IMG/VR virus record: IMGVR_UViG_3300037470_000488
Length of the DNA stretch: 64,000 nucleotides
Strand: one strand, 5' to 3'
From: an uncultured virus (IMG/VR IMGVR_UViG_3300037470_000488)
Taxonomy: Duplodnaviria; Heunggongvirae; Uroviricota; Caudoviricetes
Part shown: piece by piece, positions 66 to 6,139 of the stretch
Layout: each line of letters starts with the position of its first letter
Position numbering within the stretch: the stretch's first letter is position 1
Program-made: the position numbers and the translations under genes
The notes under the pieces: model-generated
What the model was told of the DNA's origin: nothing
Databases searched by the model: none
What the model saw: the letters and a program-made list of their open reading frames with translations, nothing else

Positions 66-1466
66 ATGGGCACCAACGACCGGGCATCTGTAGCGGCACG
101 CGCCGCCGCCCTCCTCGGCGCCCAACTGAAGCCACGGTGGACGCCGCTCCCGCACCAGATCCCACCACCCGGCGACTTCTACGGCTGGGCCATGATCGCC
201 GGACGTGGCGCCGGCAAGACGGACGCCTGCGCCGAGTACGTTGCCCGACACGTCAAAGGCCCCGCCTGCCTGCCCGGCCCCGTCCCCCACTGGATCGGCA
301 TCATCGCGCCCACCCTCGGCGACGCGGCCACGGCCTGCGTGGAAGGACCGTCAGGGATCCTCGCGCACGACCCTTCGGCAAGGGGGCCGATCTCCGCACC
401 GGGCGGCTCGGTGGTGCGGTGGACGAACGGCTCACAGGCGAAGCTGTTCGGCACGGACTCACCGGGCGATGTGGAACGTTTGCGTGCAGGTGGCAACACT
501 TGTCTGATTTGGGCCGAAGAGTTGGCGGCGTGGCGCCACCTCGACGCCGCATGGGACCAGATGCGATTCGGCCTCCGCTCCGGACCGCGCCCCCACTGGA
601 TCGCCTCCACCACCCCGAAGCCCAAGCCGCTCATCAAGAAACTGGTGGCCGGGCAGGTCAGCAACACCGTCCTGACCACCGCCACCACCTACGACAACCC
701 GCACCTCCCCGAGCACATCCGCCAGGCGCTCGAAGAGTCCTACGGCGGCACCCAGCTCGGCCAGCAGGAACTCCTCGGCCTCATCATGGACGAGGACGAA
801 AACGCCCTATGGACACGGAAGATGATCGACGCCGCCCGCGTCCGCCCAGAAGACGTACCAGACCTCGCGCGCATCACCGTCGGCGTCGACCCCTCCGGCG
901 GCGCAGGCGAGCAGGGCATCGTCGTGGCCGGGAAGTCCGGGCTCATCCTGCCGACGCTGCACGCGGTACCGGACAGCGTGGCACCGAGCGGGCCGGCGCG
1001 GCCGGAGCATCACGGGTACGTCCTCGATGACCGAACCTGCCATCTGTCGCCGGACGGATGGGGCCGGCGGGCGGTGCAGGCCGCTATCGACTGGAGCGCC
1101 GATGACCTGGTGGTGGAGACGAACTACGGCGGGGACCAGGCCGTCGCCGTGCTGCGCACTGCGGCTGAGGCGTTGGGCGTGAACATCCCAATCAGGAAGG
1201 TTACAGCGACGCGCGGCAAGGCTGTGCGGGCGCAGCCGGTGAGTGCGTTGACGGCGCAGGGGCGCTGGCACCACGCGGGGACGTTCCCGGAGTTGGAGGA
1301 TCAGATGTCGACGTGGTACCCGGAGATTGGCTGGTCACCGGACCGTGTTGACAGTGCTGTGTGGACCGCATGGCACTTGAAGCTGGTGCGGACGACGTCC
1401 GGCGGGCACGGTTCGTTGGGTGGGGATCTGGCCAGAAAGCAGATCGTTGGCGGGCGGCTACGGTGA
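66..1466 (+). CDS. terL: Terminase large subunit
   Basis: Walker A AGRGAGKT, Walker B IWAEE, coupling motif STTPKP, TTYDNPHL, nuclease motifs VGVDPS and SPDRVDS. Confidence 0.95.
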   Translation: MGTNDRASVAARAAALLGAQLKPRWTPLPHQIPPPGDFYGWAMIAGRGAGKTDACAEYVARHVKGPACLPGPVPHWIGIIAPTLGDAATACVEGPSGILAHDPSARGPISAPGGSVVRWTNGSQAKLFGTDSPGDVERLRAGGNTCLIWAEELAAWRHLDAAWDQMRFGLRSGPRPHWIASTTPKPKPLIKKLVAGQVSNTVLTTATTYDNPHLPEHIRQALEESYGGTQLGQQELLGLIMDEDENALWTRKMIDAARVRPEDVPDLARITVGVDPSGGAGEQGIVVAGKSGLILPTLHAVPDSVAPSGPARPEHHGYVLDDRTCHLSPDGWGRRAVQAAIDWSADDLVVETNYGGDQAVAVLRTAAEALGVNIPIRKVTATRGKAVRAQPVSALTAQGRWHHAGTFPELEDQMSTWYPEIGWSPDRVDSAVWTAWHLKLVRTTSGGHGSLGGDLARKQIVGGRLR

Positions 1467-1738: not shown

Positions 1739-2172
1739 ACGCGTGGCTGCTGCTGATTGTGATGGCGCTGGCGACCTACAGGGGTACGCGCTTGGTCGTG
1801 GCTGACACGTTCCCGCCGGTGCTGTGGCTGCGTGACCGGCTCGTCGGCGGGTGGCGGCCGTTGACGGAGAAGGAGCAGGGAAAGTACGTCACCGACGTGG
1901 CTGCTGTGGTGGAGGGCCCGCTGGCCCGCCCGCATCCGAAACTCGGTGCGTTGATGCGTACTGACGGTCAGGTGAACCGGTATGTGCGGCGGGTCAAGTG
2001 GTCGCCGTTCTGGTTGGCCGAGTTGCTGTCGTGCCCGTGGTGCGCGTCCGGTTGGGTAGCCGTCGCAGTGACGGTGGGGGTGTGGGCTGTGGCTGGTCTG
2101 GCGATGCCAGTGCTGGTGTGGTTCGCGGTGTGGGCGGTGGGGGGCCTGTTGGCGGCGCAGGAGTGGGCGTGA
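1735..2172 (+). CDS. DUF1360-like membrane protein
   Basis: LATYRGTRLVVADT and ELLSCPWCASGW motifs with hydrophobic helices; typical position next to terminase/portal in actinophages. Confidence 0.75.
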   Translation: MNAWLLLIVMALATYRGTRLVVADTFPPVLWLRDRLVGGWRPLTEKEQGKYVTDVAAVVEGPLARPHPKLGALMRTDGQVNRYVRRVKWSPFWLAELLSCPWCASGWVAVAVTVGVWAVAGLAMPVLVWFAVWAVGGLLAAQEWA

Positions 2173-2254
2173 CGCCGGAACGCGGGTGGGTGGCGGGCCC
2201 GTAGTGTTTGGGGTGTGGGTGCTGGGGCCTTCGGGTTCTGGTGTGGTGGCGCAC

Positions 2255-2289
2255 AGGGGCCGTCCGCAGTGGGCATGCGGACGGCCCTT
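2255..2289. terminator. GC-rich hairpin between convergent genes
   Basis: AGGGGCCGTCCGCA-GTGGGCA-TGCGGACGGCCCTT inverted repeat. Confidence 0.6.
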
Positions 2290-2354
2290 GCTGCTGCTCG
2301 GGGTACGGGTGGGGGCCGTCTCCGTAGAGACAGCCCCGCTGGGAGGTGCTGGGT

Positions 2355-3512
2355 TCAGGTGGTTTCGTGGATGCGTTTGGATTCGCGCCAGAGGTCTTTG
2401 AGGATTTCTTTCATGACGAGGCGCATGGCGCGGGCGTGTTGGTGTCCGGCGCTGATCGGGGTGCCGGTGGCGGCGGGTTTTCCGGAGGGTCCGCAGCGCT
2501 TGCAGGGCGTCTGGTGTACGGCGTCGGCGTACTTGGTACGGCCGTTGTCGTAGACGGCGCGGTACGGGGAGCGGGCTTGTTTGATGCAGGACTCGGCGAC
2601 GAGGTAGGCGCGGGTCTTGGCCACGGTGGACCAGTTGGCGCGTTGTCCTCGTGCACGGGTGGGAGCGACCCCGGCAGTCGTCCTCTGGGCTGCGAGACCA
2701 TGATGGCCGGGGTCGCCCTGCTTGCCCCCGCCGCCGCTGACCGCGTGGGCATCGGCAGCGCTATGGGCGGCGGGGTGTACGTGGAGGCCGCAGTACGCCC
2801 ACAACTCCGAGACGAGACGCGGCCTGTCGTGCAGGGTATTCCAGTACGGGTCACCGATGGCGGCGAGGAGGCGGCCGCCCTGCTTCTCGCCGACGCCGAC
2901 GGTGGCTTTCACCCACGGGCCGAGCGGGTGCTTCCGCACGGCGCGCTGAAGGTTGAGGGTCGACTGGTGCTCCAGCTTGCCGAGCGCGGTGACGACGTCT
3001 GCGAGTGCGGCTACCTGCGGTTGGTCGAGGGTGAGGCCGAAGCCGCGTTCCTCGCCGTCCTTGTCGGGTTCGTTGCGGGTGAGTTGGCGGAGTCGGTTTT
3101 CGTTGGCGATGCGGGTGCGTTCGAGGTCGTCGAGGACGTCGGCGAGGAGTGCGAGGAGTGGGGCGTTGGAGTCGGCCCACGGGGTGAACGCCAGCACCGG
3201 CGAGTAACCATTGGATGCCGTGACATGCTTGGCCGGTGCTGGCGGGTTGTGCTCCCCGACGGCGGACAGGTCATGGGGACCGTCATCCGTCTGGCCGTCG
3301 GGGAAATCTGACCCAGCCGACGTTCCCGATATGGGCGTCGGTGCCACCATGGTCGGCTGGGAGTCGTGCTCCCCGACGGCGGTACACCTCTGGGAGCCGT
3401 GAGTGCATTGGCCGTCGGGGAAGTCTGCGGCACCAGCAGCAGCAAGGTGGTCATGGGCTTCGTGCCGGGGGTGGCCGCTGCGGGTGCCTGTGGTGAAGTC
3501 TACGACCGTCAC
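2355..3512 (-). CDS. tasA: TasA-like RNA-binding protein (IS110 C-terminal/Nop-like domain, no RuvC/HNH)
   Basis: Coiled coil LDDLERTRIANENRLR, HPLGPWVKATVGVGEKQGGRLLAAIGD, SELWAYCGL, RARGQRANWS, YRAVYD, GHQHARAMRLVMKEILKDLW; no DEDD domain; contains TIGR-like units; GTG start overlaps upstream TGA. Confidence 0.8.
   Translation of the reverse strand: MTVVDFTTGTRSGHPRHEAHDHLAAAGAADFPDGQCTHGSQRCTAVGEHDSQPTMVAPTPISGTSAGSDFPDGQTDDGPHDLSAVGEHNPPAPAKHVTASNGYSPVLAFTPWADSNAPLLALLADVLDDLERTRIANENRLRQLTRNEPDKDGEERGFGLTLDQPQVAALADVVTALGKLEHQSTLNLQRAVRKHPLGPWVKATVGVGEKQGGRLLAAIGDPYWNTLHDRPRLVSELWAYCGLHVHPAAHSAADAHAVSGGGGKQGDPGHHGLAAQRTTAGVAPTRARGQRANWSTVAKTRAYLVAESCIKQARSPYRAVYDNGRTKYADAVHQTPCKRCGPSGKPAATGTPISAGHQHARAMRLVMKEILKDLWRESKRIHETT
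2665..2775 (-). ncRNA. Two intragenic stem-loop TIGR-like guide units
   Basis: Minus strand CCCCGCCGC-CCA-TAGCGCTGC-CG-ATGC-CCA-CGCGGTCAG-CG-GCGGCGGGG and GCGACCCCGG-CCA-TCATGGTCT-CG-CAGC-CCA-GAGGACGAC-TG-CCGGGGTCGC. Confidence 0.85.
3189..3488 (-). ncRNA. Stem-loop TIGR-like array, 5 units with paired 9-nt spacers
   Basis: Five hairpins (3429-3488, 3370-3421, 3312-3361, 3253-3304, 3189-3244), each enclosing a 32-nt CCA-N9-CG-N4-CCA-N9-YG core; period 58-63 nt. Confidence 0.88.
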
Positions 3513-4147
3513 GCCGCAGCACCCCCAGCCTGTGCGAGAACCGACGCAGGCAAATCCCGAACCCGATCCACACCGTGCGCCCGAACCAACTCGGCGAGAC
3601 CTTCAAGCCGTTCAGCGACCGCCGACGTACGCGCCGCCTGCTCCCGCCGCTGCCCCGCCGCGAACATCAACTCCGAGAACCCACAGTCACCCAACCGCTT
3701 CCACTCACGCGGATCCGCGCCCACGTTGTACCGCTCCTCCAGCCACTTCGGCCCGGCCGCGCGGATCGCCGCGACCTTGGCTGACCTACCCGGCTGACGA
3801 ATCGGAGCGGGCGCCGACTTAGCCACCGGGCGTGGCACTGGGCCCGGAGACTCTGCCATGACCTGTGGCTGGCGATGCAGCGTGAGACGAGGACCAATCG
3901 GAGGGCCTGAGAACGGGGGCGCGGAGGGCAGCGGAGGGAGACCGCCGCCCCGGTGGCTCCGGATCTCCTCACGGACCATGCTCGCGAGCACCTGCCCCAA
4001 CGCAGGCCGCAGGTCACAGTCGGCGATGCGGTCGAGGACCTCACCCGCCAGCGCATGAGGATCGGCCAGGTCACTGGTCGCCAGCACATCACGGACGAGG
4101 CGGCGGAGGTTGAAGTCGGTCTCATCGGCGGAACGAGCGCGATCCAT
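3509..4147 (-). CDS. Hypothetical protein translationally coupled to the TasA-like gene
   Basis: 212-aa ORF, AAGGGAAG RBS, stop overlaps tas start (GTGA). Confidence 0.75.
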   Translation of the reverse strand: MDRARSADETDFNLRRLVRDVLATSDLADPHALAGEVLDRIADCDLRPALGQVLASMVREEIRSHRGGGLPPLPSAPPFSGPPIGPRLTLHRQPQVMAESPGPVPRPVAKSAPAPIRQPGRSAKVAAIRAAGPKWLEERYNVGADPREWKRLGDCGFSELMFAAGQRREQAARTSAVAERLEGLAELVRAHGVDRVRDLPASVLAQAGGAAA

Positions 4148-4215
4148 CAGCTACTTCCCTTCGCGGCAATGCGCGGCGACGGAATGAGTATGGTCAGAGG
4201 GTTCCCTCGCGGAAC

Positions 4216-4244
4216 AGAATGCATTAGCCGCACCGATATTGCAA
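4216..4244 (-). promoter_or_regulatory. Putative sigma70-type promoter for the tas cassette
   Basis: TTGCAA-17 nt-CATTCT on the minus strand in an AT-rich gap. Confidence 0.45.
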
Positions 4245-4290
4245 AAAGCAATTAGGTTCACCGGTCCGCCTAATTCAATTCCGCATTCAC

Positions 4291-4327
4291 CCCGGAATGA
4301 TCACCTAGATACGCCACCTACCCTCCC
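4291..4327 (+). promoter_or_regulatory. Putative phage late-promoter motif (copy upstream of portal)
   Basis: CCCGGAATGATCA-N13-CCTACCCTCCC; near-identical copy at 16092-16128. Confidence 0.55.
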
Positions 4328-4354
4328 GTGCAGACCGCACCGAGGAGGAACCCC

Positions 4355-6139
4355 ATGGCCTGGTGGAGCGCCTTCACACGCCGAGGCGTACCCACACCCA
4401 CACCCACGCCCACCCCCGCACCCGACCAACCCAACACCCTCACCGCCGCCGCAGCCCCCGTCTCCAGCCCCCGCACCGGCCTCATCCGCAACACCGAAGG
4501 CTGGCAAGAAGAAGCCTGGGCCTACCACGACACACTCGGCGAATTCCGGTACGCCACCGACTGGGAAGCCAAACGCCTCTCCCGCGTCCGCCTCTACGCC
4601 GCCAAACTCGAACCCGGCGCCGACGAACCCGTACGCGCCAAAGCCGGAATGGCCGTCGACCTCCTCACCGCGTTCGCCGGAGGCCCCGGCGGACAAGCCC
4701 AGATCATGGGCGGCCTCGCCACCCAACTCAGGGTCCCCGGCGAGGGCTACCTCATCGTCGAAAACGTCAGCGGCATCGAGCAGTGGTCGGTCCGCTCCAT
4801 CGACGAAGTCCGTGCCGCGCGCGAGCGGTATGAGGTCATCGACGAGAACAGTCCCCGGTCCGGCAACAACTGGCGCCCCCTCGCCCCCGACTCAATGGCG
4901 CCCATCCGGGTGTGGCGGCCGAACAAGCGCTGGCACCACCTCGCCGACAGCCCCACCCGCGCCGCCCGCGCCACCATGCGCGAGCTGGAGTTGGTCAACC
5001 GGCACATCGTTGCTCAGTACCTGTCGAGGCTTGCCTCTGCTGGCGTCGTGCTGATCCCGAGCGAGGTCAACTTCCCCGAGAAGGAGGAGTTCGCGGACGC
5101 GCCGGACCCGTTCGTCGCCGAATGGATCGAGATCGCGGCAGAGGCGATCCGAACCCCGGGCACGGCCAGCGCCGTAATCCCCATGCCGATCAAAGTTCCG
5201 TCCGAGTACGTCGACAAGATCAAGCACGTCGACTTCACCCTGAAGATCGACGAGAAGATCATCGAGAAGCGGGACTCGGCGATCAGGCGGCTCGCCTCCC
5301 AGCTCAACGTGCCTTCCGAAGTACTCCTCGGCATGGGCGATTTGAACCATTGGAACGCCTGGCTCAGCGACGAGACCTCCCTGAAAGTGGACGTCGCCCC
5401 AGACGCGGAACTCATCTGCCAGGCCATCACCACCGGCTACCTCCAGCCCCGCCTGAAAGCCAGCCACGTCGAAGACTGGGCGAACTGGGTCACCTGGTAC
5501 GACATGTCAGAACTCACCCTCCGCCCCGACCGATCCGACGACGCCATCGCCCTGTACGACCGCCTGGAACTCAACGGCGCAGCCCTCCGCCGCGAAACCG
5601 GATTCAACGAAACAGACAAGCCGACCGACGAGGAACTCAAAGAGCAGGCCCTCAAGGTCATCATCCACACGCTGCCGTCCGGCGCTGGTAGCGCGCTCAC
5701 CGAACTCATCGGCGAACAGGTCACCATCGCCGCGACCGCACCCATCGCCCCCGGCGAACAACCCGAGCCGGAGCCCCCGCCAGAAGACCGCACACCACCC
5801 AACCCCGACACGACACGGGAAGCAGCAGCAGCAGCCCGATCGGACCGGATGCGGCAGCAGGCACAAGCCCTGCACGCCCTGCGCTTCACAACGGGCCGAT
5901 CACCAGAGTTGATGCACCCCACGCTGTGCACACAGCACGCCTACTCCTGCCCGTTCACACACGCCGCGGTGAAGCTGGACGGCCTGCCACGGCCAGGGAC
6001 GTCGGGCACGTATGAGGCGCGCCTCGACGCGTTCGGCCGGCTGTCGATCGGCAGGCTTTCCCCGCATCTGGATACGAGCGGGTTCCTGACCACTCTCTCT
6101 CCTCGGAGTAGTAATGGATTCGCTCGCAGCCGCGGCTGA
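4355..6139 (+). CDS. Portal protein
   Basis: GAGGAGG RBS; WQEEAW, RVWRP, ADSPTRA, SRLASAGV, PSEVLLG..NHW motifs of actinophage portals; position after terminase. Confidence 0.9.
   Translation: MAWWSAFTRRGVPTPTPTPTPAPDQPNTLTAAAAPVSSPRTGLIRNTEGWQEEAWAYHDTLGEFRYATDWEAKRLSRVRLYAAKLEPGADEPVRAKAGMAVDLLTAFAGGPGGQAQIMGGLATQLRVPGEGYLIVENVSGIEQWSVRSIDEVRAARERYEVIDENSPRSGNNWRPLAPDSMAPIRVWRPNKRWHHLADSPTRAARATMRELELVNRHIVAQYLSRLASAGVVLIPSEVNFPEKEEFADAPDPFVAEWIEIAAEAIRTPGTASAVIPMPIKVPSEYVDKIKHVDFTLKIDEKIIEKRDSAIRRLASQLNVPSEVLLGMGDLNHWNAWLSDETSLKVDVAPDAELICQAITTGYLQPRLKASHVEDWANWVTWYDMSELTLRPDRSDDAIALYDRLELNGAALRRETGFNETDKPTDEELKEQALKVIIHTLPSGAGSALTELIGEQVTIAATAPIAPGEQPEPEPPPEDRTPPNPDTTREAAAAARSDRMRQQAQALHALRFTTGRSPELMHPTLCTQHAYSCPFTHAAVKLDGLPRPGTSGTYEARLDAFGRLSIGRLSPHLDTSGFLTTLSPRSSNGFARSRG

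Follow-up and report, generated by a model that had tools for sequence, protein, structure and literature searches.

Stem-loop TIGR arrays are described by Faure et al. 2025 (PMC12045711) as series of units with two spacers of 8-12 nt and variable palindromic stems, in which CCA forms box C and UG forms box D. The closest relative of the arrangement studied here comes from Bifidobacterium longum. In a 2026 preprint (bioRxiv 10.64898/2026.09.09.750476), Xu et al. report that small-RNA sequencing of the purified TasA RNP of this organism recovered tigRNAs embedded in coding sequence. The wedge loop of the protein, BlTasA, is described there as overlapping two tigRNA coding regions, with the intragenic segment predicted to be disordered. 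The same preprint reports that a CUU motif marks the processing boundary of stem-loop tigRNAs and that a TasA acts as an RNA-guided repressor; it leaves the source of the intragenic tigRNAs open between the tas transcript and internal promoters.

Here we analyze a comparable locus in 64,000 nucleotides of DNA (the window) from an uncultured virus of the Caudoviricetes (IMG/VR IMGVR_UViG_3300037470_000488). The locus contains two hairpins that are probably stem-loop tigRNA units of an actinobacterial (Streptomycetaceae-type) phage or prophage TIGR-TasA system, in frame inside tasA. Because the 2026 preprint reports intragenic tigRNAs in a related TasA, the in-gene guide units are a further example of an arrangement already described, and the finding itself is not new.

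The open reading frame encodes a nuclease-less TasA

The features of the locus are as follows.

66..1466, plus strand: phage terminase large subunit (Terminase_6N, E 8.3e-20)
2355..3512, minus strand: tasA, the longest ORF, 385 aa, with GTG at 3512 as candidate start
2664..2717, minus strand: putative in-gene tigRNA unit; perfect 11-bp stem 2665-2675/2706-2716, loop 2676-2705
2724..2777, minus strand: putative in-gene tigRNA unit; perfect 10-bp stem 2726-2735/2766-2775, loop 2736-2765
3190..3485, minus strand: array of five putative stem-loop tigRNA units upstream of the conserved tasA core (hairpin scan and covariance model)
3432-3485, 3369-3422, 3310-3363, 3252-3305 and 3190-3243, minus strand: the five units of this array, the first with an imperfect stem and the other four with perfect ones
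3509..4147, minus strand: conserved partner gene, adjoining the array on its upstream side; 212 aa, phrog_4604 (E 9.9e-19), no assigned function
4328..6139, plus strand: portal-like protein (Phage_portal, E 0.013, below the curated cut-off)

The tasA module runs on the opposite strand between the terminase and DUF1360 genes and the portal-like gene. The conserved Tas core covers residues about 111-385 of the ORF (nt 2355-3182), and the first ~110 codons are the five upstream units read in frame. The product matches the NCBIfam model TIGR_Tas_endo (NF052498.1) with an E-value of 2e-71 and 240.4 bits (cut-off 100) over residues 120-378 and profile positions 1-214 of 215, and it belongs with phrog_4285 (E 3e-99). 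A profile built from 46 homologues found TasR (9mty, E 7.9e-28) and TasH (E 3e-14) in the PDB. When the AlphaFold2 model (pLDDT 85.2) was searched with Foldseek, 9mty_A (TMq 0.63) and TasH chains (0.56-0.63) ranked above IS621 (8wt6/8wt9, 0.42-0.50) and Nop5 (0.28-0.31, E at least 0.3; 3id5_A at TMq 0.29, probability 0.98 and E 0.31).

The Nop-like domain that an earlier note on this DNA had claimed is thus the Nop-type, tigRNA-binding C-terminal domain of the TIGR-Tas family, with its coiled-coil, according to the NCBIfam, PDB-profile and Foldseek results. TIGR_Tas_endo was the sole NCBIfam match, and a Pfam search of the ORF came back empty at E up to 1, giving no sign of a known nuclease domain. 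With neither RuvC nor HNH, and with residues 1-110 made of translated hairpin units, the protein has the makeup of the TasA subtype. We conclude that the ORF product is a nuclease-less TIGR-associated protein, TasA.

Two stem-loop units lie in frame within tasA

Both a repeat finder and our own scan placed exactly 30 nt between the arms of each in-gene inverted repeat. The two loops start at 2765 and 2705 on the minus strand, a spacing of 60 nt or 20 codons. Together the hairpins encode a 37-aa insert, and the minus-strand translation reads ...WAYCGLHV-HPAAHSAADAHAVSGGGGKQGDPGHHGLAAQRTTAGV-APTRARGQRANW... across it. The loop of unit 2724..2777 consists, on the minus strand, of CA, a 9-nt spacer A, CG, the 4-nt linker ATGC, CCA, a 9-nt spacer B and C. 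Unit 2664..2717 has the same grammar with T as its final loop base, a position occupied by C in 185 of 199 units. RNA folding gave the expected hairpin for both units (MFE -33.8 kcal/mol, z -2.9 for 2724..2777; MFE -31.3 kcal/mol, z -3.7 for 2664..2717), and none of 200 shuffles of either was equally stable.

The earlier note had placed two hairpin units 60 nt apart, in frame between WAYCGLHV and APTRARGQRANW, and had read them as guide units with a CCA-N9-CG grammar. Translation and repeat scan bear out the geometry, the grammar is real across 199 distinct units from 67 sources, and the guide reading agrees with the TIGR grammar and the Tas family protein. The same nucleotides carry both the grammar of a guide unit and a 37-aa stretch that AlphaFold2 models at very low confidence.

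Neither in-gene unit has CTT at its stem base. Here the protein reads LHVHP, with CAC, and most homologues have LHVLP, with CTT. Within a 9-nt interval at the 5' stem base, which may differ from the one defined in the preprint, 28% of units overall have CTT: 75 of the 272 upstream ones and 13 of the 46 inside genes.

Further units upstream and a shared grammar

A count of perfect hairpins with arms of 9 nt or more over all 64 kb of the window gave six with a 30-nt loop and zero to three for each of the other loop lengths between 8 and 79. All six are confined to 2665-3421, and their stems of 10-13 bp have five different sequences. The remaining unit, 3432-3485, forms 10 of 12 stem pairs plus one G-T. 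Covariance model R1 recovered seven units over the full sequence. They all fall within 2664-3485 on the minus strand, which is the tasA strand, and lie inside or directly upstream of the gene. No eighth unit appeared in the 64 kb, the next best R1 match having an E-value of 0.56.

The model was built from 120 units, among them the window's six perfect ones, which accordingly match it by construction because they were part of its training set: 47.8 bits (E 1.4e-8) for 2724..2777, 40.6 bits (E 5.8e-7) for 2664..2717 and 47-50 bits for the four perfect upstream units. Unit 3432-3485 had been left out of the model and scores 30.6 bits, so that the upstream units span 30.6-50 bits and E-values of 1e-4 to 4.5e-9. 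The upstream loops start 63, 59, 58 and 62 nt apart, so these five units are out of phase with one another. Rfam returned chance microRNA matches alone over 2200-4300 of the window (E at least 1.6), and a scan of 2100-4400 for promoter and terminator consensus sequences found none.

The layout recurs at homologous loci. A unit consists of a variable stem, CCA (box C), a 9-nt spacer, YG (box D), a 4-nt linker, CCA, a 9-nt spacer, CG and the closing stem, and the consensus loop of the 199 distinct units is CA-N9-CG-AYRC-CCA-N9-C. The final stem base C completes the first CCA, and the opening 3' stem base G completes the second YG. Loop positions C1 A2, C12 G13, C18 C19 A20 and C30 are invariant or above 92% in these units, and positions 3-11 and 21-29 carry less than 0.12 bit each. 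Across the 67 sources, 261 perfect hairpins have a 30-nt loop, against 5-24 at most other loop lengths; among the 343 with loops of 29-32 nt, these 261 have exactly 30. An inner helix within the loop was considered and rejected: the 199 units have no nested helix, only a weak pairing excess (0.22) at positions 11:29.

The grammar is also strongly directional. R1 made 305 matches in 47 viral loci (263 kb), and one of the 300 matches listed was antisense. In 14 bacterial-genome loci outside the training of the model, all 73 matches were sense, and eight of these 14 independent loci have in-gene units with intact grammar. The locus as a whole thus has the marks of stem-loop TIGR systems: tandem two-spacer units with boxes C and D, variable palindromic stems and an array adjoining tas on the same strand.

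The units occupy a variable loop predicted to be disordered

Across the 46 homologues, the insert at this site measures 0-5 aa in 23, 19-20 in four, 34-42 in 15, 56-58 in three and 81 in one, and unit counts follow these lengths. Insert length is thus quantized, one step being about 19-20 aa, and the grammar is preserved, as the earlier note had predicted. That note had also expected a disordered loop at a site where the flanking motifs are normally joined by a short one. Both expectations hold: pLDDT is below 50 across the insert (residues 140-168 of the AlphaFold2 model), and 9-14 aa separate the motifs in insert-free homologues. The earlier note had likened this loop to the region of IS110 recombinases that carries the catalytic Ser; in these insert-free homologues it contains no conserved Ser.

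In-gene units all occur at one site, and 47 of 51 share one codon phase. Because of this common site and phase, a single embedding in an ancestor, with units later gained and lost locally, would fit the sequences better than repeated independent deposition through an acquisition route of the kind suggested in the earlier note. The insert loop, between ...WAYCG and RG..ANW, is probably the wedge loop, or insertion 1, of published Tas structures; we base this equation on the text of the preprint and on a sequence alignment to TasR.

Spacers are replaced faster than synonymous sites

We compared the window with a close relative (L007). Stems are 96% identical (77/80), other coding sequence 87% (656/756), third codon positions 73% (177/242) and spacers, in-gene units included, 38% (27/72). 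Within the two in-gene units, 7 of 18 and 5 of 18 spacer positions match, and the spacers make up six codons of each unit. Along the protein tree there are repeated changes in how many units occupy the presumed wedge-loop site. In-gene units behave like extragenic ones: stems and boxes are retained, spacer turnover outpaces that of synonymous sites, and unit number varies among relatives.

A target search over the 64-kb window, with both tandem-spacer geometries and gaps of 0-2, found no site with two or fewer mismatches for any of the seven units. Within about 0.5 Mb of loci, real spacer pairs gave 102 matches at two or fewer mismatches and shuffled pairs gave 77; there was no enrichment, and none of the matches was exact.

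Seventeen sequencing runs contain the locus or parts of it, and all are on record as DNA. Contigs from four DNA runs include near-identical ones that span the in-gene units, for example over 2300-2957 with six other letters. One contig connects 3264 with 3408 through 26 other letters, including the central box, and represents a variant of the upstream array. A joint that skips 2612-2847 was seen in one low-depth contig.

Genomic context and the partner gene

The nearest genome loci are in Streptomyces and Kitasatospora, at 76-78% identity. A genome-contig scan with one narrow peptide pattern gave no Bifidobacterium locus. By tblastn, 90 phage records matched, 83 from Mycobacterium and five from Gordonia. 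In these records tasA is labelled "transposase", "DNA binding protein" or "hypothetical", and the gap that contains the array has no annotation. The small RNA of the "63-64" gap of phage D29 (PMC5712189) was considered as a possible instance of this element and rejected, as the D29 stretch has neither tasA nor units.

The partner gene is a consistent neighbor. phrog_4604 lies upstream in all five annotated phage loci tested (E 3.5e-32 to 1.1e-77), and a homologue is present in 69 of 81 loci, 80 of which carry tasA. Its product matched neither Pfam nor NCBIfam families, a sequence search of the PDB found no relative (E 0.034 at best), and Foldseek gave no match at E up to 0.001; the best VIA-align hit (Z 4.8) covers a helical hairpin only. 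Since family, PDB relative and Foldseek match are all missing, it is not recognizable as the ParB-like "TasParB" of Faure et al. A complex prediction of TasA with the partner, run without controls, scored 0.00.

To our knowledge, no TIGR system has a known adaptation machinery. Spacer turnover might be an active, stem-anchored process that also operates inside the ORF, and the phrog_4604 protein could be a factor for spacer renewal or tigRNA processing, a conjecture that we consider unlikely.

Function of the in-gene units

By analogy with published related systems, the array and tasA would be transcribed from the minus strand, and an RNase may release each hairpin at or near its stem base. 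A TasA dimer would bind the C and D boxes. The two 9-nt spacers could base-pair with an adjacent 18-bp DNA site, one spacer on each strand. This nuclease-less complex might then serve as an RNA-guided DNA binder or as a transcriptional repressor.

The position of the two units, mid-gene and on the coding strand, would also suit the negative autoregulation proposed in the earlier note, in which guide excision would sever the tasA mRNA between the two parts that encode the Nop domain and couple guide output inversely to TasA synthesis. The insert is found in 23 of 46 homologues and was repeatedly gained or lost, which is in keeping with such a role and indicates that it is dispensable for the fold. 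As the main role of the units, however, autoregulation seems to us possible but doubtful. The intragenic tigRNAs could equally arise from internal promoters, as the preprint of Xu et al. allows, and CUU is missing at the stem base of both units. Moreover, the in-gene spacers turn over like those of true guides, which a pure cleavage cassette would not need. This turnover bears as well on a second alternative, that the units are decaying relics of an array swallowed by the ORF, in which selection keeps nothing but a flexible peptide linker in the wedge loop. The predicted disorder of the insert, its variable length and its absence from half of the homologues fit such an origin, as do the T for C at the last loop base of unit 2664-2717 and the lack of CUU in both units. 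Yet decay would hit stems first, and it is the stems (96%) that are better kept than third codon positions (73%) while the spacers are scrambled. Both in-gene stems are perfect (10 and 11 bp), the CA, CG and CCA boxes are intact, their scores (47.8 and 40.6 bits) fall within or close to the 47-50 bits of the four perfect upstream units, and intact in-gene grammar recurs in 8 of 14 independent bacterial-genome loci. We therefore regard decay as improbable.

The hairpins might instead act as DNA, as single-stranded or cruciform sites at which a "transposase" carries out replication, recombination or transposition. Several records do annotate homologues as transposase, Mycobacterium phages carry the gene among replication genes, and there is a distant relation to the IS110 C-terminal domain (NF033542 at E 0.015 for a mycobacteriophage homologue; IS621 at TMq 0.50). 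We nevertheless judge this reading very improbable. The Pfam and NCBIfam searches revealed no RuvC/DEDD domain, insert-free homologues lack a conserved Ser in the loop, and the closest solved relatives are RNA-guided Tas proteins. In their strict sense-strand bias and box C/D grammar the hairpins resemble the tigRNAs of related systems, where RNA was what was sequenced.

On the preferred reading, that of in-frame tigRNA units, one DNA stretch would be under double duty, as structured guide RNA and as an in-frame part of the protein that binds it. Such double coding has by now been documented for stem-loop TIGR-TasA systems. The clade is common in cultured actinophages with tractable hosts, so open TIGR questions could be tested in phages with their natural hosts instead of in contigs from metagenomes. 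These include natural targets, spacer renewal, the cutting of stem-loop tigRNAs and the balance between guide release and translation.

Comparison with known systems

The most distant likeness is to Nop5 and Nop56/58 of archaeal and eukaryotic box C/D RNPs, which share the Nop domain fold at long range. TasA is not a box C/D snoRNP core protein of this kind: it has no PF01798 match, and the structural likeness is distant. Going by the cited papers, it would have neither the fibrillarin-binding N-terminal domain nor a K-turn/L7Ae partner, and its target would be DNA, not rRNA. The IS110 bridge-RNA recombinases (IS621, 8wt6/8wt9) have a distantly similar RNA-binding C-terminal domain with a helix-hairpin-helix, and their two-segment guides are likewise held in RNA loops. 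TasA has no DEDD_Tnp_IS110 or Transposase_20 Pfam match, and the match of the mycobacteriophage homologue to NF033542 is weak and partial (14 bits against a cut-off of 140). An IS110 recombinase is ruled out because TasA lacks a RuvC domain; the system also has no conserved catalytic Ser, judging by the loop of insert-free homologues, and no transposon ends, and its guides are single hairpins rather than a two-loop bridge RNA.

Closer relatives are the dual-repeat TIGR-TasR and TIGR-TasH systems (TaTasR, 9mty; SpTasH, 9w04 and others), with a homologous Nop/CTD domain, CCA as box C, tandem spacers of 9 nt and a wedge loop that joins corresponding helices. They differ in that their proteins have a RuvC or HNH nuclease domain and their edge and loop repeats are conserved and give 36-nt tigRNAs, whereas the TasA of the window has no nuclease domain and its units have variable stems in place of edge repeats. 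PlTasA, from a Peromyscus leucopus gut contig, is likewise a solo Nop-domain protein, and it is reported to bind its units as a dimer, with every unit yielding a single hairpin RNA after processing (Faure et al. 2025, PMC12045711; Guan et al., bioRxiv 10.64898/2026.08.11.744272). Its units are described as lying in three intergenic subarrays, not within the gene; those of the window type have a fixed 4-nt central linker and mostly 9+9-nt spacers. Nearest of all is BlTasA. The copy in the window differs from it in its Streptomycetaceae-type phage context, in the lack of CUU at its in-gene units and in being known from DNA alone. The two share, as far as the preprint describes BlTasA, a nuclease-less TasA, an upstream stem-loop array, in-frame tigRNAs in the coding sequence and hosts among the Actinomycetota.

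Identity of the locus

The window has a G+C content of 68% and genes of phage type. Those around the hairpins are:

66-1466, + strand, terminase large subunit, a phage gene
1735-2172, + strand, DUF1360 protein, a phage gene
2355-3512, - strand, tasA, between the DUF1360 and portal-like genes
3509-4147, - strand, homologue of the PHROGs family phrog_4604, between the DUF1360 and portal-like genes
4328-6139, + strand, portal-like protein, a phage gene

PHROGs labels the protein of ORF 2355-3512 a 'transposase' (phrog_4285), and a Pfam search of it returned no match. NCBIfam model NF052498.1, 'TIGR-Tas system RNA-guided endonuclease', covers residues 120-378 (E 2e-71; 240 bits against a cut-off of 100). 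Compared with solved structures, a profile of 46 homologues matched TasR (9mty, E 7.9e-28) and TasH (E 3e-14). The AlphaFold2 model (pLDDT 85.2) is likewise closer to TasR (TMq 0.63 to 9mty_A) and to TasH chains (0.56-0.63) than to IS621 (0.42-0.50) or Nop5 (approximately 0.29). The Nop-like domain recognized in an earlier note on this DNA is therefore correct, as the family, profile and fold matches all indicate. Because this Tas protein lacks a nuclease domain, it is a TasA, and the locus is a stem-loop TIGR-TasA system.

The same note had described a peptide insert in this domain encoded by two stem-loop units. The peptide is identical in the translation of the minus-strand ORF, and the units are perfect hairpins at 2665-2675/2706-2716 and 2726-2735/2766-2775, each enclosing a loop of exactly 30 nt and embedded in frame. 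RNA folding returns the expected hairpin for both (z -3.7 and -2.9). Across the whole 64 kb, six perfect hairpins with arms of at least 9 nt have a 30-nt loop, compared to 0-3 for each of the other loop lengths between 8 and 79, and all six are confined to 2665-3421. Scanning for motif plus stem brings in a seventh unit (3432-3485), whose stem is imperfect. A covariance model built from 120 units finds seven units in the window, all on the minus strand and all within 2664-3485; the next match has an E value of 0.56. The observation holds and far exceeds what chance would produce.

In a contig from another sediment-metagenome run, 3264 is joined to 3408 through 26 different letters, among them the central box motif. 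This contig is a naturally occurring form of the upstream array that has fewer units, and other spacers, between the identical stems of units 3252-3305 and 3369-3422.

A family of strand-specific guide units

Searching 50,697 phage records with tblastn matched 90, from phages of Mycobacterium (83), Gordonia (5), Rhodococcus (1) and Arthrobacter (1). Hairpins of this kind lie on the gene's strand in all five phage loci that we examined, and a scan of viral contigs supplied 61 further loci. Over 67 sources, 261 perfect hairpins with arms of at least 8 nt have a loop of 30 nt, compared to 5-24 for most other lengths. Among 343 perfect hairpins with loops of 29-32 nt, 248 begin with CA on the sense strand, and the antisense equivalent occurs in 4. 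The covariance model identifies 305 units in 47 viral loci, with a single antisense hit among the 300 matches listed; in 14 bacterial-genome loci outside model building, 73 of 73 are on the sense strand.

Across 199 distinct units there is little or no variation at loop positions C1, A2, C12, G13, C18, C19, A20 and C30, whereas each of positions 3-11 and 21-29 has less than 0.12 bit; no covarying inner helix was found in the loop. The unit reads stem...C/CA, N9, CG, AYRC, CCA, N9, C/G...stem (slashes mark the stem ends), or, put differently, two CCA-spacer-YG halves with a 4-nt linker between them. In the available text of Faure et al. 2025 (PMC12045711), box C (CCA) and box D (UG) flank each of the two short spacers in a TIGR array unit. 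The units are bordered by conserved repeats or, in two clades, enclosed by hairpins with 'variable but consistently palindromic' stems. The unit pattern is this box C/D scheme, so the terms 'guide units' and 'CCA-N9-CG grammar' were apt for a stem-loop TIGR-TasA system.

The phage homologues matched by tblastn are annotated 'hypothetical protein', 'transposase' or 'DNA binding protein', names that tasA also bears in four cultured actinophages (L001, L002, L003 and L005) with two to four tigRNA units beside it. In the Gordonia phages (L001, L005) the annotation includes the units in the N-terminal region of a 418-424-aa protein, and in the Mycobacterium phages ConceptII (L002) and Gompeii16 (L003) they fill an unannotated gap of about 340 nt. 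A literature search for TasA or tigRNA linked to mycobacteriophages found no paper save one cited among the references of Faure et al. (PMC12045711).

Unit number at the insert site

The predicted stepwise variation in insert length, with the grammar kept, holds. In the 46-homologue alignment the insert measures 0-5 aa in 23 proteins, 19-20 in 4, 34-42 in 15, 56-58 in 3 and 81 in 1. Covariance-model matches within the gene track these classes: one in L021, two in the window and its close relative L007, three in L013 and four in L011. The host loop tolerates 0-4 in-frame units. Eight of the 14 bacterial-genome loci also contain in-gene units, one to three per locus. As anticipated, the insert peptide is predicted to be disordered, with AlphaFold2 pLDDT below 50 at model residues 140-168 and above 90 in the flanks.

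A tree of the TasA core, built without the insert columns, requires 15 changes of insert class; for the no-insert and two-unit classes, its well-supported branches alone require at least 4-5. The window and L007, for instance, have as their sister L009, in which a 5-aa remnant is left, and L017 and L053 have the insert-free L048 as theirs. Unit number at the site therefore changes often. The in-gene units occupy a single site and share one codon phase in 47 of 51 cases, compared to 133/58/124 across the three phases for upstream units. Site and phase together speak for a single embedding in an ancestor, with units gained and lost locally since then, and against repeated deposition from outside.

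Some TasA homologues have other insertions as well: a Cys-rich one after the conserved ...ESC.K helix (alignment A3, columns ~325-355; e.g. L009, L013, L055, L057, L062) and, in a few, one after DPYWN. The model matched no tigRNA units at these insertions (L009, L013, L018, L055, L057, L060, L062).

Spacer turnover between conserved stems

We aligned the nucleotides of the window and L007, its closest relative at 85% protein identity, and counted identity by site class.

Nucleotide identity between the window and L007 by site class
Stems: 77/80 (96%)
Other coding positions: 656/756 (87%)
Boxes and linker: 39/48 (81%)
Third codon positions of core: 177/242 (73%)
Spacers: 27/72 (38%)

In the units at 2664-3305 of the window (L007: 2507-3148), stems are more constrained than synonymous sites while spacers are scrambled, inside the gene as well as outside it; the two in-gene units retain 7/18 and 5/18 spacer positions. 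This pattern would be expected of working guides, unlike a decaying relic. Cluster A mycobacteriophages (L002, L003, L036-L047, ~2120-2640) behave alike: a stem that keeps its place in the array is combined with no fewer than seven distinct spacer pairs in closely related phages, some of which have spacer A in common and not spacer B.

CUU motif and reading frame

The CUU motif that Xu et al. (bioRxiv 10.64898/2026.09.09.750476) place at the stem base is absent from both in-gene units of the window. At the insert start (2776-2784, - strand), most homologues encode LHVLP with CTT at the first in-gene stem base; the window encodes LHVHP with CAC. CTT occurs in just 28% of all units within a 9-nt stem-base window, which may differ from the definition in that preprint. 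Both the absence and this share count against carrying the published model over directly.

Among the 27 distinct loci that have three or more adjacent units, the array adjoining tasA is stop-free in the tasA frame in 20, compared to 6 and 3 in the other two frames. Unit spacing in these arrays (3190-3512, - strand, in the window) is not a multiple of three. In many TasA ORFs, then, the N-terminal 'extension' runs through guide units that are either translated or held open. The open frame fits the available text of Xu et al. (bioRxiv 10.64898/2026.09.09.750476), in which arrays can make up the 5' end of the coding sequence.

A conserved upstream gene

A phrog_4604 homologue immediately precedes the array in all five annotated phages. 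By tblastn it is present in 69 of 81 loci, and tasA in 80 of 81. Its proteins have about 155-212 aa (3509-4147, - strand, in the window; L001:1533-2024; L003:1649-2110; others). For the modeled protein (AF2, pLDDT 81.6) we found no Pfam or NCBIfam family, no sequence relative in the PDB and no convincing fold match.

In the window, the phrog_4604-array-tasA module (within 2172-4328) sits on the opposite strand between the terminase/DUF1360 and portal genes. In Gordonia and Mycobacterium phages the same module lies in the early or immunity region, near genes for Cro, antirepressor, repressor, Cas4 exonuclease and DnaB-like helicase. Given these differing positions, the module moves as a unit between phage genome regions.

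Proposed mechanism and comparison with known systems

In the available text of Xu et al. (September 2026, bioRxiv 10.64898/2026.09.09.750476), TasA is an RNA-guided transcriptional repressor, and intragenic tigRNAs may originate from the tas transcript or from internal promoters. By analogy, the units here would be transcribed on the minus strand, and an RNase acting near the stem base may free each hairpin. A TasA dimer would bind the hairpin, its two 9-nt spacers could pair with opposite strands of an 18-bp site, and the probable outcome is repression without cleavage. We found no target site with at most two mismatches to any of the seven units in the 64-kb window, and no excess over shuffled spacer pairs across loci. 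Autoregulation by mRNA cutting and a route of unit acquisition, both proposed in the earlier note, are hypotheses.

The available text of the published TIGR papers names no partner like phrog_4604, solely a ParB-like gene in other TasA loci. Also absent from the available text of published TIGR-Tas accounts are the quantised insert classes with repeated gain and loss, in-ORF spacers that diverge faster than synonymous sites, and a conserved partner gene. The locus is a further example of the described stem-loop TIGR-TasA systems with intragenic tigRNAs.
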